From: Planctomycetota bacterium
GTDB taxonomy: Bacteria > Planctomycetota > UBA8108 > SXIK01
DNA length: 64,000 nucleotides
Assembly: GCA_965223845.1 (NCBI GenBank)
Contig: CBDCXR010000004.1
Location: forward strand, 5,600,001-5,664,000
Direction of reading: 5' to 3'
Shown here: positions 1 through 14,827 of the stretch, one piece after another
Layout: the number at the start of each line of letters is the position of its first letter
Position numbering within the stretch: position 1 is the first letter of the stretch
Notes under the pieces: model-generated
What the model was told of the DNA's origin: nothing
The model's database searches: none
What the model saw: the letters and a program-made list of their open reading frames with translations, nothing else
Translations under genes and position numbers: made by a program

Positions 1-1640
1 CGCTCCCAATGCTGCGTGCGGCGTTCGGTGTTTCCGAACATGCCCTCGCGCTCGACCCACGCGGCCGACGGCAGGATCAAATCCGCGACGTCCGTCGTCG
101 GAGTCGGATAGATCTCGCTCACGACGATGAACCGACCGTCGCCTGGGCGACGCGCAAACCGGCGCAAGTTGGGCAACGAGACCCACGGGTTCGTCGTCTG
201 GATCCACATCGCGCGCACGTCTCCGCGCTCGAGCGCGCGGAACATGTCGATCGTGTGGTAGCCGGGCTTCGCCGGAATCGAGTTCGCGGGGAGACCCCAG
301 AGCTTTTCGGTGAACTCGCGGTGCTCGGGCTTCGTCACGAGCATGTCGGCCGGCAGTCGATTCGAGAGCGTACCGACCTCACGCGCGGTACCGCAGGCCG
401 AGGGCTGCCCGGTCAAGCTGAGCGGGTTGCTTCCCGGACGGCTGATCTTTCCGGTGACGAGGTGAAGATCGTTGATGAGGTTGTTCATCCACGTGCCGCG
501 GACGTGCTGGTTGACGCCCATGCACCAGAGACTCACCGTTCCGCGATTCGAGTCGCCGTAGAGATCGGCGAGAAGCCGAAGCTGCGCCGCGGGGACGCCG
601 CTCGTCTTCTCGACGGACGCGGGATCGTAGTCCTTCAAGAACGCCCGCATCTCTTCGAGCGAGGAGGGTTTCGCTGCGTCCTTGAACGTGTAGCGCTTCG
701 CCGAGTCGCCATGACAGCCGTAGCCGATCGCCTCGAGGTCCTCGACGCCGCGTCGAAAAACGACGTTCTCTTCGATGAACGCCGTGTCGATACGGTTCGA
801 TTCGAAGAGCAGGTGAAGGATGCCGTTCGCGATCGCGAGGTCCGTGCCCGGCCGAAATCGAACGCGGACGTCGGCGTACTGGCTCGTCGGAGTTTCGCGC
901 GTCGCGAGATCGACGACTCGGACGGACGGACGGCGGCGCTTCGATTCGAGGATGCGACCGAACAGCACGGGGTGCGTCTCGGCCATGTTGTTACCCCAGA
1001 GGACGAAATCGTCGCCCGACTCGAAATCGTCGTAGCAGCCCATCGGCTCGTCGCTCTGGAACTGCGTCATGAATCCCATGACGGCCGAAGCCATGCAGAG
1101 GCGCGCATTCGGATCGAGGTTGTTCGAGCGCATGCCGCCCTTCACCCACTTGAGCGCGGCGTAGCCATCGTAGATCGTCCACTGACCCGACCCGTACATC
1201 GCGACGGCCTCGGGTCCGGACTCGGCGAGAGTCGACGAAAACTTCTCGGCGACGAGATCGAGCGCCGCGTCCCACGAGATGCGCTCGAGAGTCCCGTCCG
1301 CGCGACGGCGCTGCGGGTGCGTGAGGCGGTCTTCGCCGTAGAGGAATCCCGGCAGGTGGTACCCCTTAACGCAGAGGAGTCCGCGGTTGACGGGGCTCGC
1401 TTCGTCGCCGCGCACCGCGACGACGCGCCCCTTGTCGACGCCGACTTCGACGCCGCACCCCGTGCCGCAGAATCGGCAGGGCGCCTTTCCCCAAGTGAGG
1501 TCCGCATGCCTCGTACCCGCAACCGGTCCCGCCGCGATGCGCGCCGCCTCGTCGCGCTCCTTGCACGAGAAGGCGACGACTCCACCAGCGGCTCCGCCGA
1601 GCCAAGTGATGAAATCGCGTCGGTCCATCGGATTCTTCAT
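1..1640 (-). CDS. napA: Periplasmic nitrate reductase catalytic subunit (3' end outside window)
   Basis: Not in the ORF track because it has no stop in the window; translated by hand from ATG at 1640. Tat signal MKNPMDRRDFITWLGG, 4Fe-4S motif CRFCGTGC...GLLCVKG, GSGQWT, Mo-ligand motif DPNARLCMASAV, LTGQPSACGTAREVG. ATGA overlap with the upstream gene. Confidence 0.93.
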   Translation of the reverse strand, partial: MKNPMDRRDFITWLGGAAGGVVAFSCKERDEAARIAAGPVAGTRHADLTWGKAPCRFCGTGCGVEVGVDKGRVVAVRGDEASPVNRGLLCVKGYHLPGFLYGEDRLTHPQRRRADGTLERISWDAALDLVAEKFSSTLAESGPEAVAMYGSGQWTIYDGYAALKWVKGGMRSNNLDPNARLCMASAVMGFMTQFQSDEPMGCYDDFESGDDFVLWGNNMAETHPVLFGRILESKRRRPSVRVVDLATRETPTSQYADVRVRFRPGTDLAIANGILHLLFESNRIDTAFIEENVVFRRGVEDLEAIGYGCHGDSAKRYTFKDAAKPSSLEEMRAFLKDYDPASVEKTSGVPAAQLRLLADLYGDSNRGTVSLWCMGVNQHVRGTWMNNLINDLHLVTGKISRPGSNPLSLTGQPSACGTAREVGTLSNRLPADMLVTKPEHREFTEKLWGLPANSIPAKPGYHTIDMFRALERGDVRAMWIQTTNPWVSLPNLRRFARRPGDGRFIVVSEIYPTPTTDVADLILPSAAWVEREGMFGNTERRTQHWE

Positions 1641-3211
1641 TTGCCGATCCACTCGTGCTCGGGACGCGCCATGATATCGTCGATGACTTTGGCCACGGCG
1701 TCGGCGGCGGCTGCCTTCCCTTCCTCTCGCGCGTGGGCGACGATCTCACGCGCCTGAGGGATGAGCTCCATGTAGAATCGCTCGGCCACTTCGTACATGC
1801 CGTGCCAGTGTGCGTAGTCGGGCGCCATCATGCTCGCACCGTGACGAGCTCGTCGACCTTCGTGGTGCCAGAGATAGAACCAAGTCCACTCGATCTCCTC
1901 GTCGAAAGACGTCGAAGTTCGGAGCCCTTGCTCGAGTAGCGCGGCCATGATCTTCTGGCCGGGCTTGGCGAACTTTTCGTTGTAGAGCACGACGAAGTCA
2001 TCGTACTGGCGGTAGAAGCCGTTGACGTAGTCCGGCGTGTGGCAGTGAAGGCATACGTTCTTCATCTCTTGGCGTTTCGCCTGCCACGTGCTCTTGATCA
2101 ACGCGCGCCGTTTCTCCGGATCGGTCTCCTTGACGACGGCGTGATTCGCGTCCGTGTCCATGACGAGACTTACCGGCGGGCGATTCGTCCAGGAGATACG
2201 CTCGCCCGGGTCGTGCGTGATGCGGCCCTTGTTCTTCGAGTGGCCGGACATGTGACAAGTCGCACAGGTCGGCGCCTGTGAATAGTCCTTTCCGAGCACC
2301 CATTCCTTCGAGTCGAGGTTCAGCTCGTCCTTGAGATCGCGGTAGGCGACGCCGTGCTTCGACTCTTCGTAGATCTCCTTCTGCGGGTGGTCCGGACCGA
2401 GGTGACACTTGCCGCAGTTCTCCGGTTGGCGGGCGCGACGGGGCGAGAAGTCGTGTCGCGAGTGGCACGCGGAGCAAGAACCGCGCGAGCCGTCGAGATT
2501 GAGTCGCCCGATTCCGGTATTCGGCCACGTCCCCGGGTCGTAGAGGGGTCGGCCGTTGTCGTCCTTGCGGATTTTCGCGACGGCGTCGAGGTTCGTCGGC
2601 TTCCCGTCGGCGTCCGGCTTCAGCTCGACGACCGAGATGCGTCCGCCGTCCGTCGACTGAAGCGCGACGGCGCTCCCGTGGCATTGCTGGCAGCCGACGA
2701 ACGCGCTCGCCATGCCGTTGACCGGAGCCGAGCCGCGTCCGGGGGTCGGTGAATGCGGGTTGAACGGCTGGCGCGAGCCTTCGACGGTCTCGGCGAGAAA
2801 GTTATCGAGCGAATGAAGGATGTTCCCACCCTTGGCGTGGTGACTGCGGGCGAACTCATCGGCGACGTTCGGATGGCAACGTCCGCAATCCCGCGGCGTG
2901 ACGATCGTCGCGATTTGGTGTCCGTGGTGATTGAAGCCATCGACGTCGTCGGGTTCAGCCCGATGGCATTCCACGCAGCCGACGCCCTTCTCGGCGTGGG
3001 TACTCCCCTGCCAGTGCTGGACGATGCCCGGTGACGAATCTCCGTGGCAGCTGACGCAATCTTCCGAAGATTTCGGAATCGGATACGCGTGCGTTTCGAG
3101 TCCGGACTCGCGGCGCTTACGGAGGATCTCCATCGCTTGCACGAACACGAGGGAGAGAAGAAACGCGGCCCCGAGGCCCGCGATGATTCGTTTCTTGGTT
3201 TCTAGATTCAT
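1637..3211 (-). CDS. Membrane-anchored octaheme cytochrome c, hydroxylamine oxidoreductase (HAO) family
   Basis: Eight CxxCH motifs (CVSCH, CVECH, CGRCH, CQQCH, CSACH, CGKCH, CATCH, CLHCH); HAO signatures CHSRHDFS, GPDHPQKEIYEESKHG, HEGRRARHGASMMAPDYAHWHG; N-terminal hydrophobic helix. Confidence 0.9.
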   Translation of the reverse strand: MNLETKKRIIAGLGAAFLLSLVFVQAMEILRKRRESGLETHAYPIPKSSEDCVSCHGDSSPGIVQHWQGSTHAEKGVGCVECHRAEPDDVDGFNHHGHQIATIVTPRDCGRCHPNVADEFARSHHAKGGNILHSLDNFLAETVEGSRQPFNPHSPTPGRGSAPVNGMASAFVGCQQCHGSAVALQSTDGGRISVVELKPDADGKPTNLDAVAKIRKDDNGRPLYDPGTWPNTGIGRLNLDGSRGSCSACHSRHDFSPRRARQPENCGKCHLGPDHPQKEIYEESKHGVAYRDLKDELNLDSKEWVLGKDYSQAPTCATCHMSGHSKNKGRITHDPGERISWTNRPPVSLVMDTDANHAVVKETDPEKRRALIKSTWQAKRQEMKNVCLHCHTPDYVNGFYRQYDDFVVLYNEKFAKPGQKIMAALLEQGLRTSTSFDEEIEWTWFYLWHHEGRRARHGASMMAPDYAHWHGMYEVAERFYMELIPQAREIVAHAREEGKAAAADAVAKVIDDIMARPEHEWIGK

Positions 3212-3266
3212 GATTCGGTCCGCGCGAATTCCGCCCGAGTCCTGATCGCGGAGTCGACAGGACCCA

Positions 3267-4316
3267 TCAGTGCTCCACCGCCGCTTCCCAGACGGTGAAT
3301 CCGATGATCAACGACGCAGCGACGATGCCGATCCAAACGCTGAGCTCGACCCGGGGAAACAGCTTCCGCAGCGCCTGATCGATGAACGGCCAAAGGAACA
3401 TGACGAACACGATGAACCCGGTGCTAAGTACCGCGAAGGTCCCCGAGAAGAGTTTCAGCCACCGGAAGACGACGTAGAAGAACCACTCGGGCTTGATGAC
3501 CTCCGGAGTGGTCTGAGGATCTGCGCGAGCGCCGAGCTCCGCCGGCAGGCAGATCGCGAGCGTCGTGAGCACGATCATGATCACGAGGCCGATGATCAAT
3601 TCCGTGAAGAAGTGATCGGGAAAAAAACTAAACGTTCCGGATCCGTCCTTCGGATCCCTCTTGAATCGAAATTCCGTGACGCCTTGGAGCCGGATCAGCG
3701 TGATGTGAACGAAGAGGAGGAGCACCATCGCCATCGGGAGCACGGCCGCGTGAAGAATGAAGAACCGCGAGAGCGTGTGCTCACCGTAGACTTCACCGCC
3801 GAGGAGCATCCGCTTGAGGAATCCCCCGATCAGCGGGACGGTCTCGGCGATGTTGGCGCCGACCGTCGCACCCCAATAGCTGAGCTGCTCGTAGACGAGA
3901 CTGTAGCCCGTGAATCCCACGGTGATGGTGAGGAGGAGAAGACACATCCCCACCATCCAATTGAGCTCGCGCGGCTTTCGGTAGGCGCCGGTGAAATAGA
4001 CGCGCATCTGGTGGAGGATCACGGTCGCGACCATGAGGGTCGCGGCCCACTTGTGGAGGCTTCGGAAATACCAGCCGTACGTGGCTTCTTCCGTGATGTA
4101 GCGAACTGATTCGTAGGCGCGGGCGGCACTCGGCTCGTAGTAGAACGCGAGCAGGATGCCGGTCACGATCTGAACGACGAAGAGATACGCGGGCGTTCCT
4201 CCGAGACAGAACCACCAGTGCTTGAGGTGATTCGGAACCGGCTCGTTCGTGAGCTCCCGGAGGCGATTGCCCGAGACCGGAACGCGATCGTAGAACCAGT
4301 TCGCCACTCGCGACAT
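3267..4316 (-). CDS. Cytochrome b of a Rieske/cytb complex (b6-like, subunit-IV region fused)
   Basis: Heme His pairs SLHKW...ILHQM and ILHAA...VHIT, WFCLGG (heme ci Cys motif), GFTGYSL, Qo-site IKPEWFF. Start taken at ATG 4316, 2 nt after the Rieske stop. Confidence 0.93.
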   Translation of the reverse strand: MSRVANWFYDRVPVSGNRLRELTNEPVPNHLKHWWFCLGGTPAYLFVVQIVTGILLAFYYEPSAARAYESVRYITEEATYGWYFRSLHKWAATLMVATVILHQMRVYFTGAYRKPRELNWMVGMCLLLLTITVGFTGYSLVYEQLSYWGATVGANIAETVPLIGGFLKRMLLGGEVYGEHTLSRFFILHAAVLPMAMVLLLFVHITLIRLQGVTEFRFKRDPKDGSGTFSFFPDHFFTELIIGLVIMIVLTTLAICLPAELGARADPQTTPEVIKPEWFFYVVFRWLKLFSGTFAVLSTGFIVFVMFLWPFIDQALRKLFPRVELSVWIGIVAASLIIGFTVWEAAVEH

Positions 4317-4318
4317 CG

Positions 4319-4921
4319 TCAGGCGAGCCCCGTCGTGTCCGCATCCCGGCGGTGCTTCCCGCCGCACTCGAGGTCTCGGTCCTGATCGCCGCCGCTAGGG
4401 GGATCGGCGGCGGCGAGCTCGTCGGTCGCTACTCGTACGTAGAGCAGCCCCCCGCGCACGTCGAGCGGGAACCGCAGGAGAGACTGCTTCGCGTCGGCCG
4501 GTGGGCCCGAACGCGGCGTGCCGTCGCTCGCGAACACGCCGTTGTGGCACGGGCAGAAGAAGCGATCGTTCTGGGGCTCCCAAAAGACCTTGCAGCCGAG
4601 ATGCGGGCAAGTGCTCGAGAGCGCGAGAAAATCGTTTGCCGTTTCGCCTTCACCGCGCCGCGTGATCGTGACGCGCGCGCCGGCGGGAGTTTCATACGCG
4701 ATCGCATCGCCGACGGAGAGATCTGCGACGCGCGCGACGTAGAGCCACGCCGTCGGTCGCGCCTTCGACGGATAAAGATACCGGCCGCCGTAAAGAGCGA
4801 ACGTGCCGTAGCTGGCGGCGAGGCTGCCCGCCATCACCCATCCCGTGGCTCCGCCGATGAACTCTCGGCGTTCGACGTCGTTCGGTTTCGTCTCGTCAGC
4901 CGCCGGATTCGAATCCACCAC
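4319..4921 (-). CDS. Rieske 2Fe-2S subunit of a Rieske/cytb complex
   Basis: CPHLGC and CPCHNG boxes, GPP motif, N-terminal twin-arginine ERREFIGG plus a hydrophobic helix. Confidence 0.93.
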   Translation of the reverse strand: MVDSNPAADETKPNDVERREFIGGATGWVMAGSLAASYGTFALYGGRYLYPSKARPTAWLYVARVADLSVGDAIAYETPAGARVTITRRGEGETANDFLALSSTCPHLGCKVFWEPQNDRFFCPCHNGVFASDGTPRSGPPADAKQSLLRFPLDVRGGLLYVRVATDELAAADPPSGGDQDRDLECGGKHRRDADTTGLA

Positions 4922-4957
4922 GTCCCTCTGATCCCCAATCCCAGTCTCAGAAGCACC

Positions 4958-4987
4958 GGATTAAAAGATATTCCGACCTTTTTATCC
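4958..4987. promoter_or_regulatory. Inverted repeat GGATTAAAAG-N10-CTTTTTATCC, candidate Rrf2-family operator overlapping a -10-like element
   Basis: 9/10 arm match, an AT-rich island in GC-rich DNA, ~36 bp upstream of the Rieske start; TTTAAT on the minus strand lies within the left arm. Confidence 0.6.
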
Positions 4988-5008
4988 AGAGAAGATCCGA
5001 ACGATCAT

Positions 5009-5422
5009 CTACTCGTCGCGACTGAATGCATCGCGGCCCAGGTCGGCAATCGTCGCGCCGTCGATCCACTCTTCGTAGGATTCCCGCACGCGCGACCACG
5101 CTCCGTGGAGCGGGCACGGATCCGCGTCCGAACAATCGGGAAAGCCGAATATGCACCGAAAGAGAACACTCTCGCCGTCGAGCGCGCGAAGGATGTCGCC
5201 GACCCTCGTCTCGAGCGCTTCCGGCGAGGCGCGAAAGCCGCCCCCCGGACCCTTGCGTGATTCGACGAATCCGCGCTTGCCGAGATCCGCGAGCACCTTC
5301 GCCAGGTACGGGGCCGATAAATCATAGTCGGCGGCGAGAGTTTCGACGTCGTACCACTCGCCTTCTGCGCGGACGAGCGCATGAAGCGCGCGGAGAGCGT
5401 ATTGACTCGTCTTAGAGAGCAA
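5009..5422 (-). CDS. Rrf2-family transcriptional regulator, probably Fe-S binding
   Basis: SKTSQYALRAL, YLAKVL, SRKGPGGGF wing, three C-terminal Cys (CIFGFPDCSDADPCPLH). Confidence 0.92.
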   Translation of the reverse strand: MLSKTSQYALRALHALVRAEGEWYDVETLAADYDLSAPYLAKVLADLGKRGFVESRKGPGGGFRASPEALETRVGDILRALDGESVLFRCIFGFPDCSDADPCPLHGAWSRVRESYEEWIDGATIADLGRDAFSRDE

Positions 5423-5451: not shown

Positions 5452-6897
5452 CTACAGATTCGGGAACGCCGCGGCGAGGTCGAGCTCGTCCCCGGTCGTC
5501 TTCTGCAGCTCGCGCAGTCGCGCGAACAGCTTCTTCATGAGCGCGAGGTTGTTTCGATCGCCCGCGAGGTCGCGCGTCTCGAGGGGATCGGCGACGAGAT
5601 CGTAGAGTCGCGCTCGGCTGATCTTCGGGTAGAGGATCAGCTTGTGGCGGCCGACCGTCACCGAGCGCTGGAGCTTCAAGTACGCGCCGTAGATCGCGTC
5701 GTAGCTCGAGCTCTTCGTCTCGCCGCGAAGGAGCGGAAGCAGGCTGTGAAACTCGACGTGTTCCGGCTTCTCGACTCCCGCGAGCTCGAGCGTCGTCGGG
5801 ACGACGTCCTGAAGGTAGATCGGTGCATCGATCGTCCGCCCCGCCGCGATCCCGGGCCCGCTGACGATGAACGGCACCCGCGTGCTGTGCTCGTAGAGGT
5901 TTTGCTTTCCGAGGAGACCGTGGTGCCCCACCGCGAGCCCGTGATCGGCACTGAACACGATATAGGTATTGTCGGCCTTGCCCGATTTCTCGAGTGCAGC
6001 GAGCATGCGGCCGATCTGCGCGTCCATGTGCGTGATGATCGCGTAGTACTCCTGGCGGTTCACCTTCACCGCGTACTCGGTGCGGGGAAACGGCGCGAGC
6101 TTCTCATCGCGGAGGCCGGGGCCACAGCCGATCGAATCCTTGTACGGGTACTCAGCGAGATAGCTGAACGGGACCTTGACCCGCTGGAGCGGATACTTGT
6201 CGACGTACTCCTTCGGGCTCTGCCGCGGATCGTGGGGCGCGTTGAACGCGAGGTACATGAAGAACGGCTTCTCGCTCTTCGCGGCGATCTCGAAGAACCC
6301 ATCCGCGTCGTCGCCGAGGACTTCACTCCAGTGCTTTCCGCCTCTCCAAAAACCCTCCCACTGCCGGTCCCACGGTCGCCAGGCATCTTCCTCGCCCTCG
6401 TGCGGGCGGTTGTACCCCGCTTTCGTCTGGTTCGGCATGCCCGGTCTCACGTGGACGACGTGATCGAACGCGAGCTCCGCCTTCGCGCGGACGTGCCACT
6501 TCCCCGAGAAGAACGTTTCGTAGCCGGCCTTCCGCAGAATCTCCGACCAAAAGCGCCCCGCCTTTCGCTCGTCTTCCGTCGCTTGATACACGCGGTGCGC
6601 GTGCCAAAGGAACCGCCCCGTGTTGAGCATCGTCCGGCTCGCCACGCAGACCGCGCCGCTCCACGAGCCCATATTGTACGCGCGCGAAAACGAGGTCCCG
6701 CGCGCGACGAGTCGATCGAGGTTCGGCGTCTCGATTTCGTCGTTTCCTAGCGCTCCGACGAGCTCGTGCGAGTGATCGTCGGCGAAAATGAACAGAATGT
6801 TCGGCCGCGCGTCGTCGGCTCCCCGGACGACAGTCGCAATCAGCAGCCCGCAAAGGCAAACGGTCATCGAGAGCGAGAGTCGCGGCCGCGTCGTCAT
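5452..6897 (-). CDS. Exported formylglycine-dependent sulfatase
   Basis: Signal peptide, RPNILFIFADD, CVASR (CxxxR), GKWH, APHDP, SADHG. Confidence 0.9.
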   Translation of the reverse strand: MTTRPRLSLSMTVCLCGLLIATVVRGADDARPNILFIFADDHSHELVGALGNDEIETPNLDRLVARGTSFSRAYNMGSWSGAVCVASRTMLNTGRFLWHAHRVYQATEDERKAGRFWSEILRKAGYETFFSGKWHVRAKAELAFDHVVHVRPGMPNQTKAGYNRPHEGEEDAWRPWDRQWEGFWRGGKHWSEVLGDDADGFFEIAAKSEKPFFMYLAFNAPHDPRQSPKEYVDKYPLQRVKVPFSYLAEYPYKDSIGCGPGLRDEKLAPFPRTEYAVKVNRQEYYAIITHMDAQIGRMLAALEKSGKADNTYIVFSADHGLAVGHHGLLGKQNLYEHSTRVPFIVSGPGIAAGRTIDAPIYLQDVVPTTLELAGVEKPEHVEFHSLLPLLRGETKSSSYDAIYGAYLKLQRSVTVGRHKLILYPKISRARLYDLVADPLETRDLAGDRNNLALMKKLFARLRELQKTTGDELDLAAAFPNL

Positions 6898-6995: not shown

Positions 6996-8330
6996 CTACT
7001 CGATGACCTTGAGATCGGGGACAAAGTACTCTTTGCCTTCGATCTCGACTCGGCGAGTCGGCCAGCGGATGCAGGGCGTCAGGATCTCGATGCCGTCCTC
7101 CCCGACGATGAACGTGTCTTCGTGCTTCGAGCCGCGACACGTCGGGTTGTAGGCCATCGCCATTCCCGGACGGATGACCGCGTCCGGCAGCTTGCGCAGA
7201 AGCGTGATCCTCTCCGCGGTGAGGATCGGTCCGCCCTGGAGATGCTTCTGCCATTCGTTCAGGTAACCGCCCTCGGCGTACGCGCGTTCGTTGGCCTGGA
7301 GGACCTGGCGAAACGTATTCCCCGGGCGAGTCGCGTGCAGCATCGCCGCCATGACCTTGGCCCCCACATCGTAGACGCGGAGAAGCTCTTCGTCGGGCTT
7401 CCCGAAGTGGAGGAGGCGACTCGTCGAGATCACCATCCCCCATCGCCGCACGCAGACGTTGAGATTCAGGTAGTCGCGGAGCTCCGCACCCACCGGGAAC
7501 GGATGCTTGTACGTACGTACGCGATCGTCGACCGAGGCGAGGTTGACGGTCGGGAAGATGTCCCAGTACCAGCACTCCCGCGCGAGAAGATACTGGACGT
7601 CGTACTCCGTCATTCCGGGGCGGACGACGTCAGCGACGGCTTCGAGGATCTCGACGCACTTCTGTCCGAGCCACCGGTACTTCTTCAGCTCCGGCGGAGT
7701 CAGCGGGAAGAGGAGACCGAGGAAGTCGGTCGTCTCGAGCGGCTGCATCGCGCCGGGGTGGACCGCGTCGGTGACGATCTTTTCCGGATCGGGACAGTAC
7801 TTCGCGATGCGCGCCGGCTCTTCGGTCGCGTCTTCGTAGTAGCGAAACTGCTCGATCTCGAAGCCGAGCCCGCTCACGACCTCCGCCACGAGCCGCGGCG
7901 CTTCGATGTTGTTCGAGATCAGAACCACCGCATCCTTCGTGACGAGAACCTTCGCCTGCGCAGCGTCGCTCGCGTGAACGATGAAATCCTCGCCGCCGCC
8001 GGTGATCCAGCTGAACGTCGTCTCCTTCGTCAGAAGCAGACCGTCGGCTCCCTTCGACGCGAGGAACGTGCGGACGCGCTGAAGCTTCATCTCGACTTCG
8101 ACACGGCGCTCGGCGCGGTCGATGACCAGCTCGCCGAACCGACTCGAAGCGCGCTCGGGATTCCGAAATAGATCGTCCGAAGGAAGCGTCGTCATCGGGC
8201 CTCCGCAGGAACTGAGACCAAGCGCGATTCCGAGCAAGACCGGAATCGCGACTGCGCTCGAAGCACGAAAGCCGCGAGAGTCTAACGTGGTGGAGAAAAT
8301 AGGAGTACGCTCCTCAGGCGAAATCGTCAC
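6996..8330 (-). CDS. M24/creatinase-fold (Xaa-Pro aminopeptidase-like) protein, possible lipoprotein
   Basis: Creatinase-like N-domain (GADGLLL..FSWITGG), PGMTEYDV, KHLQGG, SKHEDT. Start uncertain (GTG 8330 would include lipobox-like LGLSSC; ATG 8195 is the alternative). Confidence 0.7.
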   Translation of the reverse strand: MTISPEERTPIFSTTLDSRGFRASSAVAIPVLLGIALGLSSCGGPMTTLPSDDLFRNPERASSRFGELVIDRAERRVEVEMKLQRVRTFLASKGADGLLLTKETTFSWITGGGEDFIVHASDAAQAKVLVTKDAVVLISNNIEAPRLVAEVVSGLGFEIEQFRYYEDATEEPARIAKYCPDPEKIVTDAVHPGAMQPLETTDFLGLLFPLTPPELKKYRWLGQKCVEILEAVADVVRPGMTEYDVQYLLARECWYWDIFPTVNLASVDDRVRTYKHPFPVGAELRDYLNLNVCVRRWGMVISTSRLLHFGKPDEELLRVYDVGAKVMAAMLHATRPGNTFRQVLQANERAYAEGGYLNEWQKHLQGGPILTAERITLLRKLPDAVIRPGMAMAYNPTCRGSKHEDTFIVGEDGIEILTPCIRWPTRRVEIEGKEYFVPDLKVIE

Positions 8331-8490
8331 GCGGAAGACCGACCCGTCTGCCCTGTCATCGTCGGTTCCAAAGGGGGGGAAACCAGCTAAGATGACGCTC
8401 GTTTCTCCCTTGCGCAACGACGGGGATTGGTTATCAGACCTTCGACTGCGTGGTTGCCGTCGCGGATGGGTTGGCTCGTAAGAGGTTGTC

Positions 8491-8552
8491 GCCACGAAGG
8501 GCACGACGGACGCGAAGGGAAGAGGAATGCGAGAGGAGAGGGGGGAGGAGTA
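8491..8552 (+). repeat. Copy of the dispersed CACGAAG purine-rich repeat
   Basis: GCCACGAAGGGCACGACGGACGCGAAGGGAAGAGG plus a GA-rich tail; resembles copies at 38097 and 42221. Confidence 0.6.
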
Positions 8553-9008: not shown

Positions 9009-10295
9009 TCAGTGCTGAAACTCCGGCACCTCGGAAGGCTCGCGGCGAATGTGCGCGCCGAGTGAGCTGAGGCGGTGCTCGATCTGCTCGTAGCCGCGGT
9101 CGAGATGGTAGATGCGCTGCACCTCGGTGACGCCGGCCGCGACAAGCCCGGCGAGGAGAAGCGATGCGCTCGCGCGGAGATCGGAAGCCATCACCGGCGC
9201 ACCGCTCAGACAGGGCACGCCGGAGATAATCGCGCTCGGCCCTTCCTTCCGGACATTCGCTCCCATGCGCGCGAGCTCGGCGATGTGAATGAACCGATCG
9301 GGGTAGACCTTCTCCGTGATGATGCTGATCCCGTCGGCGAGGCTGAGAAGCGCCATCATCTGCGCCTGAAGGTCGGTCGGAAAGCCGGGATAGGGAAGCG
9401 TCGTCACATCGACCGCCCGGAATCCACCGTTCGATCTCACGCCGATCGAATCGCCTTCAGCGGTCACGTGGAGTCCGACTTGCCGAAGGATATCCGTCAC
9501 CGCCGCCATGTGGTCGGGCCGCGCCTTCCGAACGACGACGTCCCCGCGCGTGATCGCACCCGCGATGAGAAACGTCCCCGCTTCGATGCGGTCGGGAATC
9601 ACGGTGTACTCGACGCCGCCGAGCTCCGGTACGCCGTGGACGACGACCCGCGGCGTCCCGACGCCCTCGATGATCGCTCCCATCTTCGTGAGGCAGCCGG
9701 CGAGATCGACGATCTCCGGTTCGCACGCCGCCGCCTCGATGACCGTCGTCCCGTGCGCGAGCGTCGCGGCCATCATAATGTTCGCCGTCCCGAGGACGGT
9801 CGAGCCGAACGGCCCGCCGAGAAACACCGTCGCGCCCCGAAGCTCGTCGACCTCCGCCTCGACGTAGCCGTGGCGGATCCGGATGTTCGCTCCCAGCGCC
9901 GCGAGCCCCTTCAAGTGCAAATCGATGGGCCGCACCCCGAAGACGCAGCCGCCGGGAAGCGACACCTTCGCCCGCTTCCGCCGCGCGAGAAGCGGCCCCA
10001 GCGTGCACACCGACGCACGCATTTTGCTCACGTAGCTGTAAGGAGCGGTGTGCGGCTCCGAATCCTCCAGCTCGACCTCGATCGCCCCGTCCTGCCGCCG
10101 CTCGGCGTCCATGCCGAGGTCGCGGAGGATCTGTAGCGTGGTCGTGACGTCCTGAAGCTCGGGGACGTTCTGGATCCGGCACTTCTCATCGGTGAGAAGC
10201 GTCGAAAAAAGGATCGGCAAGGCCGCGTTCTTCGCCCCGCGGACTTCGACGCTACCCTCGAGCGGGATGCCTCCCTCGATGAGGAGCTTGTCCAT
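9009..10295 (-). CDS. murA: UDP-N-acetylglucosamine 1-carboxyvinyltransferase
   Basis: [43 protein letters not shown]. Confidence 0.97.
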
Positions 10296-10581: not shown

Positions 10582-11511
10582 TCACCCCCGCCCCACCACC
10601 ACGCGCTCGATGCCGCCGTAGTCCTTGATCACGCGCAGCGCGCCGAGTCCCGCGCGCAAGAGAGTTTCGCGCACGTCTCCGGCTTGGCCGTCTCCCACTT
10701 CGACGATGAGATGGCCGGCGGGCGCGAGGCGCTCGCGCGCAGCCGACGCGATCGCTCGGTAGTAGCCGAGTCCGTCGCGCTCGCGGCTCTTCTCGTCGAC
10801 GAGCGCCGCGCGCGGTTCGTGGTCTCGGACCTCGGGCATCAGGTCGCCGTACTCGCTCTCCGCGACGTACGGTGGATTCGAGACGATGACGTCGTAGCGG
10901 CGATCGATCGGGAGCGGCGCGAAGAGATCGCCGGCGAACAACTCGACGCGCGAAGCGACGTCGTGAGCGCGGGCGTTTCGCTCCGCGACGGCAAGGGCAT
11001 CGGCGCTCGCGTCGACGGCGTCCACGCTCGCGTAGGAGCAACTCTTCGCGATGGCGATTGCGATATTCCCTGCGCCCGTTCCGAGGTCGAGAACTCTCCT
11101 CGCCTCCGGTGCGGCCGGAACGCAATCCTCGCCCCCGTCCGGCACGTCCCGCCCGAGCGCCTCGAGCGCGGCATCGACCAGGTGCTCCGTTTCCGGCCGG
11201 GGAATGAGCACCGCCGGTGTCACTTCGAACGCGAGCGAATAGAACTCCTTCGTCCCGAGGATATACGCGACCGGTTCACGCTTTCCGCGCCTCGCGACGG
11301 ATGCGCGAAACTCCGCGCGCTCCTTACCCTCGACCGGACGCTGGAATCCGGTGTAGAGCTCCATGCGCGTGCAGCCGAGCGCCGCCGCGAGAAGGAGCTC
11401 CGCGTCGAGGCGCGGCGAAGCGCACTCGGCTCGGCGGAAGTAGTCCTCGGTCCACGCGAGGAGCTCCTTCACCGTCCACACATTCGGCGCTTCCGGTTGC
11501 GGCGCGATCAC
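10582..11511 (-). CDS. prmC: Release factor glutamine methyltransferase
   Basis: [22 protein letters not shown]; overlaps the prfA stop. Confidence 0.95.
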
Positions 11512-12590
11512 AACGCCTTCAGCCGCTCCTCGCGATCGCGCGCACGCAGCGCTTCGAACACCGGCTCGAGAGCGCCTTCATGAACCACCTTCTCGAGGTT
11601 GAAGTTCTGTCCGATGCGGTGATCCGTCACGCGGTTCTGAGGAAAATTGTACGTGCGGACGCGCTGACTGCGGTCGCCGGAGCCGATCTGACTCCGCCGT
11701 TCGGACTGTTCCTTCTCGAGTCGCTCCGACTCAAAGTGCTCGTAGAGCCGGCTTCGGAGGACGCGCATCGCCCGCGCGCGGTTCTTGTGCTGAGACGACT
11801 CTTCTTGAATCGCGACGACGATGCCCGTCGGCTCGTGAGTGAGGCGAACGGCCGATGACGTCTTGTTGACCTTTTGCCCGCCGGGTCCCGATGCGCAGTA
11901 AAAGTCCACGCGGACGTCGGCGTCCTTGATGTCGACTTCGACCTCTTCGGGCTCCCCCATGACCGCGACCGTCGCCGCCGACGTGTGGATGCGCCCGCTC
12001 GTTTCCGTCTCCGGCACACGCTGCACGCGGTGACCGCCCATCTCGTAACGGAGATCGCGGAAGACCGCCTCGCCCGTAACGCTGAAGACGATCGTCTTGA
12101 AGCCGCCGAGATCCGTCGGCGAGGCATCGAGGAGCTCGATCTTCCAGCTGCGCCTCTCGGCGAGACGCGAGTACATGCGGAAGAGATCGCCGGCAAAGAG
12201 CGCGGCTTCATCGCCGCCTGTCCCCGCGCGGATCTCCATGATCACGTTTCGCTCGGAGTCCTTGTCTTCGACGAGGACCGCTTCGAGGATCTCGGCCGAC
12301 AGTTGCTCGAGCTCCGGCCCGATGCGCTCGACCTCCTCGCGCGCGAGCGCGCGGAACTCCTCGTCCTCGTCGCTCGAGCCGGCGAGTTCCTCGTTCTCGC
12401 GGAGATCGCTCGCGAGCTCGCGGTACCGCCGGAACCGCCCGACCTTCTTCGCGAGTCCGCCGAGCTCCCGCGAGTGCGCGCGATAGAGCGACGGATTCGC
12501 GATCACATCCGGTGAGCTCACGAGCTGCTCGAGCTCGTCGTGACGAGCGATCAGTTCGTCGAGCTTCTTTTCGACCAGCTCAGGGAGCAT
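11508..12590 (-). CDS. prfA: Peptide chain release factor 1
   Basis: [15 protein letters not shown] (PxT, RF1 type), [14 protein letters not shown]. Confidence 0.97.
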
Positions 12591-12875
12591 CGCGGGTCTC
12601 GCGCGGAACCGCTCACTCGGCGGCGGGCGGAATGGAGGCAGCGCCCAGCGGCCCCTCGGGCATCGGCGCAAGGTTTCGATCGAACCCGCGGCCGTTCGGG
12701 ACGATCTCGACGACCGGCGGGAACGGGGACAGGTTCGAACCCGGAACCAGACACGCATCCGCATATCCGGTTAGCGACATAGCATCGGCGAGAATCCGCC
12801 GGGCGGCAAGATCGGCGCCCGCGCTCACGCGAGTTCGTCGATCGGAGCGCCGCACACTCGTCGAAACCGAGTGAG

Positions 12876-13286
12876 TCAGGACTTCTCGGCGTCGGGCTTC
12901 GCTTCTTCTGCGGGCTTCGCGTCGCCGCCCTTCGCGTCCCCCGGGGCGCCCTTCGACTTCGCGTCCTTCTTCCCCTCGTCCTCCTCGCCCTTCTTCCTCT
13001 TCCGTCCGCGCGGGTCGAGCGACACTTTCTCGCGGCCCGCGCGTCGCGACGACTTCTTCTCGGTAAGGAGCTTGTCCTTCTGCTCGTTGCTCCAAGCGTG
13101 GCGCCGCTGGAACTTTTCGACGCGTCCGGCCGCATCGACGAACTTCTGCTTCCCCGTGTAGAAGGGATGGCAGGCGGAGCAGATTTCGACCGTGAGCGTC
13201 GGGACGGTCGCCCGAGTCTCGAAGCTGTTGCCGCAGCCACACGTAACGGTGCACTCGACGTAACGGGGGTGGATCTTCGGTTTCAT
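12876..13286 (-). CDS. rpmE: 50S ribosomal protein L31 (Cys/Zn type) with a long charged C-terminal tail
   Basis: [38 protein letters not shown]. Confidence 0.96.
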
Positions 13287-13414
13287 CGGTCTTTCCCTGG
13301 CGCGTAGCCGCTTGCGCCTAGCTTGTTCGAGGAGACGGCTCGTGGACGAGATGCCACCGGCGCCGGCGACGCTTGCGCTCCGAAGCAAGACGACCGACCC
13401 GGCGGAAGCCGACC

Positions 13415-13443
13415 ACTATACTGAGTGCCCGGCGACGCATCAA
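13415..13443 (-). promoter_or_regulatory. Sigma70-type promoter for rpmE-prfA-prmC
   Basis: Minus strand TTGATG-17 nt-TATAGT, ~130 bp upstream of rpmE. Confidence 0.6.
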
Positions 13444-13525
13444 ACCACATTCCCGCGCGGTTCCGCGCATCGTGGATGAGCGTGCAACTCGATCCACTGA
13501 GGCGAGTTACGACCGCCCGGCGCCT

Positions 13526-14827
13526 CTAAGCGGTCTCCCGCCGGTTTTTCTTTCGCGCTACGCGCTTCCCCCGGGCGAACGTCTTCTGACGGACGAGCTC
13601 CGGCGTGACGACGTACTCGGCGATCTTTTCGGCGTGGTCGGGGATCTCGAAGAGCGCATCGAGCATGACGTTCTCGACGATCGCGCGCAGTCCCCGCGCC
13701 CCCGTGCCGCGGCCGGCGGCGAGCTTCGCGATGTCGCGAAGCGCCTTGTCCGTGAACGTGAGCTCGACGTCGACCAGGCGGAAGAGCGCCTGATACTGCC
13801 GGACGATCGCGTCCTTCGGCTCGAGGAGGATGCGCACGAGCTCGTCTTCGGTCAGCGGATCGAGCGTGCTGAGGAGCGGGAGCCGCCCGAGGAACTCGGG
13901 GATCATGCCGAACTGGATGAGATCCTCGACCTCGACCTGACGGAGGAGATCGCGACGCGCCTCGAGATCTTCGCGATGGGTCTCACCGAAGACTGGGTTG
14001 AATCCGATCCGCTTCTTACCGATGCGGTTTGCGATGATCTCCTCGAGCCCCGAGAACGTCCCGCCGACGATGAAGAGGATGTTGCGCGTGTCGACCTGGA
14101 TGTACTGCTGCTCGGGATGCTTACGCCCGCCCTGCGGCGGCACGTTCGCAACGGTGCCCTCGAGCATCTTGAGAAGGCTCTGCTGAACGCCCTCGCCCGA
14201 GACGTCACGCGTGATGGAGACGTTTTGTGTCGCGCGCGCGACCTTGTCGATCTCGTCGACGAAGATGATTCCCTGCTCGGCGCGCTCGACGTCGAAGTCG
14301 GCTGCCTGGAGAAGCTTGAGGATCAGGTTCTCGACGTCCTCGCCGACGTACCCGGCTTCGGTGAGCGTCGTCGCGTCGCCGATGGCGAACGGAACCTGAA
14401 GGATCTCGGCCATCGTCCGCGCGAGCGCGGTCTTACCGCAACCCGTCGGTCCGATCAGAAGAATGTTCGTCTTCTCGATCTCGACGTCGGCGCTCTTCGT
14501 CGTGTCCTGGAGGAGCAGCCGCTTGTAGTGGTTGTGAACGGCGACCGAGAGGATCTTCTTTGCGTGTTCCTGGCCGACGATGCGCTCGCTGAGGCGTGCA
14601 AGGATCGTGCGAGGCGTCGGAATCTGCTCGAGATAGAGCGGCGGCGGCGCCTGCCCGGAGTGCTCGTCCTCGTGGAGGATCGAGTGACAGATCTCGACGC
14701 AGCGATTGCAGATGTAGATCGTGGGGCGCCCAGCGATGAGCTTGTCGACTTCGTGCTTCGTCGAATCGCAGAACGCACAGCGCTCGACGTTGTCTCGCTT
14801 TCGTCCGCCCCCTCCACTTCGTGTCAT
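13526..14827 (-). CDS. clpX: ATP-dependent Clp protease ATP-binding subunit ClpX
   Basis: Zn finger CAFC...[31 protein letters not shown] loop, TGARGLR. Confidence 0.97.

Follow-up and report, generated by a model that had tools for sequence, protein, structure and literature searches.

A conserved triad of Rieske, cytochrome b, and octaheme cytochrome genes, joined to nap genes in part of its carriers, as a candidate quinol-driven nitrite reductase module

The idea that a Rieske/cytochrome b complex feeds electrons to the periplasmic nitrate reductase (Nap) or to an octaheme cytochrome is not new, having been proposed for Caldithrix abyssi and demonstrated, with Qcr, for Campylobacter jejuni. 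The C. abyssi proposal, made in 2017 from the genome only, concerns the cluster Cabys_2564-2556 (napM-napA-napG...napH-Rieske-cytb-epsilonHao), which has no NapC and no NrfA; Rieske/cytochrome b would feed the tetraheme and/or the octaheme cytochrome, and the chain would be electrogenic (PMC5317091). In C. jejuni, deletion showed in 2018 that NapAB without NapC is driven by menaquinol-oxidizing QcrABC and that the route is electrogenic (PMC6195509). The anammox bacterium Kuenenia encodes a b6-type Rieske/cytochrome b complex (Kuste4569-4574) with the membrane-bound Kuste4574, a protein like hydroxylamine oxidoreductase (HAO) that lacks the cross-link and has been proposed as a nitrite reductase (bioRxiv 10.1101/2025.06.25.661457, PMC12485887), and the Geobacter cluster extHIJKLMNOPQS combines the Rieske protein ExtO and the short cytochrome b ExtP with multiheme cytochromes and an outer-membrane porin (PMC5877670). 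We analyzed a stretch of 64,000 nucleotides (the window; G000:C4:5600001-5664000) from a planctomycete genome (G000; 7.9 Mb, 91.7% complete, 64% G+C) in which genes for a Rieske protein, cytochrome b, an HAO-like octaheme cytochrome c, and NapA stand side by side. An earlier interpretation of these letters (the sequence-only reading) saw in the octaheme a wire from Rieske/cytochrome b to NapA and started from the premise that Nap is not itself proton-motive, to which C. jejuni Qcr is a published exception (PMC6195509).

The conserved unit is the triad of Rieske, cytochrome b, and octaheme genes, and not Nap. With slightly more confidence than doubt, we favor an explanation in which the triad encodes a menaquinol-oxidizing complex of b6 type; the octaheme, which belongs to the clade of HAO and of the octaheme cytochrome IhOCC, would be both its c-type subunit and the terminal reductase for nitrite (or for nitric oxide [NO] or hydroxylamine), and NapAB would draw on the same supply. 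Joined to Nap, such a module probably enables the cell to conserve energy from the reduction of nitrate and nitrite.

The gene cluster and the conserved triad

Family-profile searches of the reading frames of the window gave five minus-strand genes in the order rrf2, Rieske, cytochrome b, octaheme, and napA, co-oriented, tightly spaced, and with an ATGA overlap, just as the sequence-only reading had placed them; a sixth gene outside the window follows napA.

5009..5422, minus strand: Rrf2-family regulator, 137 amino acids (PF02082, 100.6 bits)
4319..4921, minus strand: Rieske iron-sulfur subunit, 200 amino acids (PF00355, 38.9 bits; CPHLGC...CPCHNG)
3267..4316 (open from a GTG at 4367), minus strand: cytochrome b, a fusion of b6 and subunit IV, 349 amino acids (PF00033, 183.8 bits; PF00032, 29 bits)
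1637..3211, minus strand: octaheme cytochrome c of the HAO/IhOCC clade, 524 amino acids (PF13447, 83.5 bits; eight CXXCH)
1..1640, minus strand: 5' two-thirds of napA, with 732 nucleotides (nt) more beyond the window start (ATG at 1640; twin-arginine motif DRRDFI)
-1286..-696 in window numbering (L003:12714-13304), minus strand, outside the window: tetraheme doubled NapB, 196 amino acids (four CXXCH)

The rrf2 and Rieske genes are 87 nt apart; only 2 nt separate the Rieske stop from the likely cytochrome b ATG at 4316 (a 49-nt overlap results if the upstream GTG is used), and 55 nt lie between the cytochrome b and octaheme genes. The octaheme stop and the napA start share the sequence ATGA, which suggests one transcript and translational coupling. 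An operon scan returned 0 promoter-like sites and 6 terminator-like sites, with 4.8 expected. The sequencing runs listed as containing the stretch are four DNA runs from one study, with no RNA run among them. Over the 14 kb past position 1, napA is completed and is followed by the tetraheme NapB-like gene and then by an unrelated LTD/CotH/beta-helix protein. Domains of NapC/NirT, NapGH, NrfH, and cytochrome c1 were found neither in the cluster nor in the next genes of the window, and their absence, noted earlier for the visible part, extends through these 14 kb. One finding that would have spoken against the sequence-only reading, napC or napGH after napA, did not turn up; the doubled NapB stands there instead. 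The same genes of the window and the same 14 kb contained no napD on either side of the cluster.

A full-length orthologue of the octaheme (66 to 77% identity) occurs in 46 of the 401 genomes sampled from the phylum, the source genome included. We searched ±9 kb around it with the window's own proteins in 40 of the 45 other genomes (G287, G030, G170, G231, and G257 were left out), and the Rieske, cytochrome b, and octaheme genes were adjacent and co-oriented in all 40 loci, an arrangement and a recurring order that are far beyond chance. Of the five-gene synteny that the sequence-only reading envisaged, this core stood; the outer members did not, with NapA in 14 of the 40 loci and Rrf2 in a minority. 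In those 14, NapA (69 to 75% identical) and the doubled NapB come directly after the octaheme. Apart from one locus with a divergent NapA-like gene (L071), the other 25 of the 40 have nothing conserved in this place, the neighbors being phosphofructokinase, glycosyltransferases, Nramp, and kinases, often on the opposite strand; these neighbor tallies are approximate, as the crude gene calls were wrong for some genes.

The octaheme family is very large and reaches far beyond the phylum. All but one of 8000 scored candidates were significant, the best 120 being at least 73% identical, and a cross-phylum scan matched at least 590 stretches, 584 of which encode an octaheme relative. The 80 loci kept come from Planctomycetota, Acidobacteriota/Thermoanaerobaculia, Gemmatimonadota, Krumholzibacteriota, Myxococcota, Chloroflexota, Eiseniibacteriota, and others, and their octahemes are 69 to 75% identical over the whole length. 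Rieske and cytochrome b lie within 600 bp upstream in 62 of the 69 loci that have enough upstream sequence; the others are six with a gap of about 0.8 kb and one with a partial cytochrome b hit only. NapA follows the octaheme in 28 of 64 loci, and in 27 of these 28 the doubled NapB does too. At least six cross-phylum loci are the same contigs as in the phylum set, and the two counts are not independent. The gap of about 0.8 kb between cytochrome b and octaheme (L128, L132, L153, L162, L172, and L173; mostly it is <100 bp) could hold an extra small gene.

A family search of all 46 triad genomes found true NapA in 19, leaving 27 without it. In 17 of the 19, NapA adjoins the octaheme; in the other two, G144 and G170, the two genes are on different contigs. 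Across the phylum sample, NapA occurs in 65 of the 401 genomes, in at least 25 of them beside an HAO-like octaheme by coordinates.

More distant octahemes of the phylum show how modular these genes are. Some sit in triads (L078, L079, L081, and L093, the last also with NapA and doubled NapB), some in an octaheme-NapA-NapB order without Rieske/cytochrome b (L083 and L084), some stand alone (L074 to L077), and some lie next to an Rrf2 regulator (L089 and L090). In L083, genes for a multiheme cytochrome c, a 4Fe-4S protein, and an NrfD-type membrane protein (L083:5501-8497) precede the octaheme in place of Rieske/cytochrome b; by their predicted products they are a different quinol-dehydrogenase module in the same position, making the quinol module apparently exchangeable. 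Among the comparative arguments, this swap speaks most strongly for Rieske/cytochrome b as the source of electrons for the octaheme and Nap.

Several observations concern the surroundings of these loci. In L083, a DUF2492 gene comes after NapB. After two triads (L071, oriented 10940-14224, and L161:10147-12396) comes a divergent NapA-like molybdoenzyme, 41 to 42% identical, possibly another terminal reductase served by this module; in L071 the NapA-like gene (42%) is succeeded by a gene for 102 amino acids without family match and then a 4Fe-4S protein, with no doubled NapB. A gene for an outer-membrane beta-barrel of the Alginate_exp type lies beside 10 of the 40 loci, 8 of them with NapA (L035, L037, L041, L043, L044, L050, L055, L061, L063, and L067; cluster c7), and also in L083 (14317-15717); the barrel may let nitrate or nitrite through the outer membrane. 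No such gene is adjacent to the window's own cluster.

The octaheme as candidate subunit and reductase

The octaheme carries an N-terminal transmembrane helix with the motif MxLxxKRxIIxxLxxxFLxSLVxVQxxE. In an alignment of 27 sequences (A1), the motif is present in every triad-linked octaheme, including those of the divergent triads L078, L079, and L093 (43 to 50% identical by tblastn), and is missing or different in stand-alone (L075, L077), Nap-only (L083, L084), and anammox octahemes. The octaheme gene occupies the place of cytochrome c1/f in all 40 loci, and the cluster has no third subunit of the c1/f kind. We modeled cytochrome b with Rieske residues 16 to 166 and octaheme residues 1 to 500, using custom alignments and no hemes. 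The complex scored 0.70 and the highest-scoring of 3 controls 0.12. A score of this height was attained by 58 of 80 solved complexes and by 2 of 110 mismatched pairs, a benchmark that holds only roughly for three chains and custom alignments. The runs agreed in at least 89% of contacts, with partner pLDDT of at least 82. In the model, octaheme residues 3 to 31 pack on cytochrome b residues 233 to 255 and the Rieske membrane helix (23 to 44), and octaheme residues 44 to 47, 75 to 81, and 111 to 112, in the region of hemes 1 to 3, touch the Rieske head. The model supports, without showing it, binding of the octaheme to Rieske/cytochrome b, and the octaheme looks like a subunit of that complex. 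That the two form one unit, as was first supposed from the window alone, is supported by the 40 loci, by a helix specific to triads, and by a predicted complex that passed its controls.

As to the type of enzyme, eight CXXCH motifs are invariant in A1. The octaheme scores 83.5 with PF13447 (cut-off, 21.9), has its eight CXXCH in the spacing of the HAO/IhOCC clade, and matches solved members, most closely 4qo5 (E = 9.9e-40 with the single sequence, 1.3e-64 with the profile); next by profile are 6h5l (Kustc0458; 6.4e-35) and NeHAO (1.2e-26). The structure 4QO5 is IhOCC, an octaheme nitrite reductase without P460 (PMC9250108). The equivalog model of HDH gives 74 against a cut-off of 900. To locate the cross-link tyrosine, an alignment of a Kustc0458 orthologue with NeHAO was chained through the IhOCC alignments: NeHAO reads HVNPGGWTY(467)TEGW, Kustc0458 has Trp at the Tyr467 position, His468 of the octaheme aligns to Tyr467 (His or Gln at 468 across the family), and its Tyr466 stands opposite Trp465 of NeHAO. 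By alignment, therefore, the octaheme appears to lack the tyrosine that defines oxidative HAO/HDH. Proteins of the HAO family have one five-coordinate heme (PMC8042395, PMC9250108), and HAOs without the tyrosine act reductively on nitrite, NO, and hydroxylamine, with no oxidation of hydroxylamine (PMC8042395). Assignment of the octaheme to the reductive type is supported at the level of sequence. An own terminal reaction is also what the distribution asks for, because 27 of the 46 triad genomes have no NapA.

Partner proteins and the source genome

The Rieske protein has a twin-arginine motif and one transmembrane helix, and C105, P106, H107 and C123, P124, C125, H126 are invariant (alignment A3). 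In cytochrome b, H88, H102, H189, and H204 are invariant with b6-type spacing, as is the Qo motif PEW(F/Y) at P276-E277-W278 (alignment A2). With 2Fe-2S motifs, four heme-ligand histidines, and the Qo motif, both proteins have the predicted hallmarks of the bc1/b6f superfamily, and cytochrome b falls below the cut-offs of the cytochrome b6 subfamily model (226.8 bits; cut-off, 325) and of ExtP (230 bits; cut-off, 290). The WWFCLGG cysteine associated with heme ci is present here at cytochrome b position 37 (window about 4206-4208). Among 15 relatives in A2, this position is Cys in 7 and Ala in 8; with Ala in about half of them, heme ci was rejected as a family feature.

The complete napA (L003:13268-15652, minus strand) is a frame of 794 amino acids, 790 from the ATG, and passes the equivalog cut-offs of NapA (NF010055, 966.3 versus 904; TIGR01706, 939.5 versus 930.55). 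Its N-terminus, MKNPMDRRDFITW, contains a twin-arginine export signal and the N-terminal 4Fe-4S domain (PF04879, 65.5 bits). A plus-strand frame of 584 amino acids over napA has no family match and was treated as a shadow frame of a gene with 64% G+C. The NapB-like protein matches PF03892 in its first half only (30.8; cut-off, 25.1) and scores 15.8 against 230 with the equivalog model of the standard diheme NapB. Its halves align with a score of 113 (shuffles: mean, 27.5; standard deviation, 5.2; maximum, 45), each has APPxxPH...CxxCH...CRQCH, and exactly four CXXCH occur in all 46 relatives from the fetched loci. It is best described as a doubled NapB, predicted to work like NapB, and it is a likelier direct donor to NapA than the octaheme.

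The Rrf2 protein passes the superfamily model TIGR00738 (97.5; cut-off, 73.3) and scores 43.8 with the NsrR equivalog model, whose cut-off is 182. Its C-x6-C-x5-C-x2-H pattern is a possible Fe-S site, and most related loci lack an rrf2 gene next to the triad. Rrf2 genes also lie at L089:6499-6909 and L090:11742-12062, near distant HAO-like octahemes (37 to 38% identical) without Rieske/cytochrome b, which hints at a recurrent regulatory link between Rrf2 and octahemes.

Profile searches of the source genome found no NapC/NirT/NrfH match, no NapD, and no NosZ; the best values were 57.9 for NapH (cut-off, 213) and 26 for NirK (cut-off, 296), the NirS hits were repeat-like only and inside very large proteins, and NrfA gave one partial hit of 26 bits in a frame of 797 amino acids. 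The independence from nrfA, nirS, and nirK that the sequence-only reading envisaged agrees with this search, which gave no NirK over the cut-off, no real NirS, and for NrfA only the partial hit. The genome also has one NIR_SIR protein, an A-type oxidase, and two further cytochrome b genes (G000:C4:4123183-4123713 and G000:C4:671775-672173), so the organism may have up to three complexes of the Rieske/cytochrome b type. One of the two lies in an open frame of 854 amino acids and the other about 10 kb from the A-type oxidase gene. Across the 46 triad genomes, NrfA was found in 3, NirK in 1, and NirS in 1; 17 of the 19 that have NapA contain none of these, and NosZ occurs in 4 of the 19.

The remaining neighbors are ordinary. 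Upstream of rrf2 on the same strand are a sulfatase (5452-6897), an M24 peptidase (6996-8504), and EPSP synthase (9009-10295), genes without relation to the cluster. On the other side, outside the window and on the same strand, a protein of 1905 amino acids (L003:6789-12506, minus) begins 207 bp after the doubled NapB; it has three lamin-tail domains, a CotH kinase domain, and a beta-helix/NosD-like region, and no tie to the cluster was seen in other loci.

Electron route, competing explanations, and relation to known systems

We propose the following route. The b6-type complex would oxidize menaquinol at its Qo site; by analogy with all Rieske/cytochrome b complexes studied, one electron would pass from the Rieske cluster into the heme chain of the octaheme and the other would recycle via the b hemes, with the proton-motive yield expected of a Q-cycle. 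The c-type subunit would be an octaheme of the IhOCC/HAO family, held by its N-terminal helix, and not cytochrome c1/f. Its five-coordinate heme would be the terminal reductase, most likely from nitrite to ammonium or NO. NapA and the doubled NapB, appended here and in roughly 35 to 45% of relatives, would draw electrons from the same module, and nitrate could be carried to nitrite and onward without NapC, NapGH, NrfA, NirS, or NirK; in this genome an Rrf2 regulator with a probable Fe-S site lies upstream. Ammonium as the product fits the lack of NosZ and of a clear NO reductase here, and NO, as proposed for anammox enzymes, is also possible.

Several points weigh against this proposal. HAO-family enzymes are usually trimers and Rieske/cytochrome b complexes dimers, a mismatch in stoichiometry, and the heme-free model may partly echo the packing of the cytochrome f/c1 helix in solved complexes. 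The covalent heme-ci cysteine of cytochrome b is not conserved across the family, and the cofactor content of the family may vary. Nitrate does not serve as the entry point in general, since 27 of the 46 triad genomes are without NapA, and the real substrate may be a different compound. The assignment to the reductive type depends on a chained alignment, and with the nearly invariant Tyr466 two residues before the cross-link position the sequence leaves a cross-link possible. A distant cbb3-like heme-copper enzyme in the genome (201 bits; cut-off, 583) could be a relative of NO reductases, which makes an NO-forming route conceivable. Finally, at 91.7% completeness, and with all genomes incomplete to some degree, genes reported as absent are genes not found.

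The octaheme might instead be an electron-transfer subunit only, a noncatalytic multiheme stand-in for cytochrome c1/f that feeds soluble or lipid-anchored partners, NapAB here and other reductases or oxidases elsewhere. Its membrane anchor and its c1/f gene position would suit that role, as would the NapAB with its own tetraheme donor that comes next in 14 of 40 phylum loci and 28 of 64 cross-phylum loci, and multiheme c subunits are known from Rieske/cytochrome b clusters such as Geobacter ext (PMC5877670). Yet the described HAO/IhOCC relatives are enzymes with one five-coordinate heme (PMC8042395, PMC9250108), the identity of 66 to 77% within the phylum and 69 to 75% in other phyla is more than a wire would seem to need, no conserved acceptor gene comes after the octaheme in the 25 of 40 loci without NapA or a NapA-like gene, and 17 of the 19 Nap-bearing carriers would be left with no other nitrite reductase; we give this view a small chance. 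The linkage that had suggested a wire to NapA is real, but with 27 of 46 genomes lacking NapA a wire is not what the octaheme primarily is. Improbable to a like degree is a stress or detoxification system acting on NO, hydroxylamine, or nitrite in hypoxia under redox- or NO-sensing regulators, with the Nap link being co-regulation only. Rrf2 with its Cys3-His pattern stands upstream here and beside some relatives, including the distant L089 and L090, and universal stress proteins, Hsp20, Crp/Fnr, PAS kinases, and sigma-54 regulators are recurrent neighbors. A full Rieske/cytochrome b quinol oxidase would, however, be an expensive donor for such a purpose; the divergent cluster exchanges it for another respiratory quinol module, and the overlap of napA with the octaheme stop (ATGA) speaks for one transcript.

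NapAB might also be served by another quinol dehydrogenase, or by soluble cytochromes from either of the other cytochrome b complexes, while the octaheme module works on nitrite independently. The two further cytochrome b genes, the NapA on another contig in the triad genomes G144 and G170, and the planctomycete NapA proteins not beside an octaheme (at most 40 of 65) leave room for this. We consider it a slim chance, as the genome search yielded neither NapC/NirT/NrfH nor a NapH over the cut-off, NapA adjoins the octaheme in 17 of the 19 triad genomes having it, and the octaheme-NapA-NapB order persists when the quinol module is swapped. Very improbable, in our estimate, is an oxidative octaheme acting on hydroxylamine or a related compound like the HAO of nitrifiers. 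Membership in the HAO superfamily and the conserved Tyr466 near the cross-link position are compatible with it, but the aligned position itself is His or Gln and not Tyr, the closest solved relative is without P460 (PMC9250108), Rieske/cytochrome b normally gives electrons to its c-type subunit and not the reverse, and the loci show no ammonia-oxidation context.

If nitrite is indeed reduced with quinol via a Q-cycle, as we propose, nitrate and nitrite respiration in many bacteria of soil, sediment, and water would be more widespread and more energy-yielding than marker-gene surveys assume; a global survey of ammonifiers used HAO and IhOCC, among multiheme homologs, only as a false-positive test set (PMC10716430). 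In its boldest form, which we regard as possible but rather doubtful, the triad would be an unrecognized energy-conserving quinol:nitrite oxidoreductase and the main ammonifying nitrite reductase of many Planctomycetota, Acidobacteriota, Gemmatimonadota, and other phyla, missed by surveys that count nrfA, onr, nirK, and nirS; where NapA and the doubled NapB are added, the whole route from nitrate to ammonium would be present, both steps running on the Q-cycle. The interest of the triad lies in its breadth, with an octaheme about 70% identical across phyla in a very large family, and it is directly testable. Because many non-anammox bacteria carry the module, it may also be easier to use as a model of what HAO-linked Rieske/cytochrome b complexes do in anammox bacteria. 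The literature search, which did not cover subscription papers and supplements, found no paper describing the octaheme or triad family outside anammox bacteria and Caldithrix.

The known systems each share part of this design. The anammox parallel drawn by the sequence-only reading holds as an analogy and not as orthology: in an anammox genome (G032), the HAO-like protein linked to Rieske/cytochrome b shares 25% identity with the octaheme and has its anchor helix at the C-terminus, and orthology to Kuste4574 was rejected on these grounds. With such low identity and an anchor at the opposite end, the resemblance appears to be convergent or very distant. Two additional components of the Kuenenia complex, a hexaheme/octaheme cytochrome and an NAD(P) oxidoreductase subunit, have no counterpart in our cluster, and the complex has no Nap in its published description (bioRxiv 10.1101/2025.06.25.661457, PMC12485887). 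IhOCC shares the eight hemes and the HAO-like clade, has no P460, and is described as a nitrite reductase; PMC9250108 does not report it with a Rieske/cytochrome b partner, and the motif of the anchor helix lies outside the aligned region. The Geobacter ext cluster, whose ExtP model our cytochrome b does not reach, has cytochromes of 4, 5, 10, and 12 hemes, is described without Nap, and is implicated in selenite and tellurite reduction (PMC5877670). The c-type subunit of C. jejuni Qcr is conventional; the complex is encoded at a site separate from nap, also serves oxygen respiration, and is presented with no octaheme enzyme (PMC6195509). Closest in gene content is C. abyssi, with NapA, a tetraheme cytochrome, Rieske, cytochrome b, and a tyrosine-less octaheme in one cluster, a likeness in which the two octaheme sequences are set side by side by description only; unlike our locus, it has NapGH and NapF, NapM in place of a doubled NapB, and the octaheme last (PMC5317091). 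The epsilonproteobacterial epsilonHao likewise shares, by description in PMC5317091 only, the lack of the tyrosine and the adjacency to nap. What sets the present system apart from all of these is an IhOCC-like, N-terminally anchored octaheme as fixed third member of the Rieske/cytochrome b gene set and apparently as its third subunit, together with a doubled NapB, no other Nap accessory gene, and a very wide distribution.

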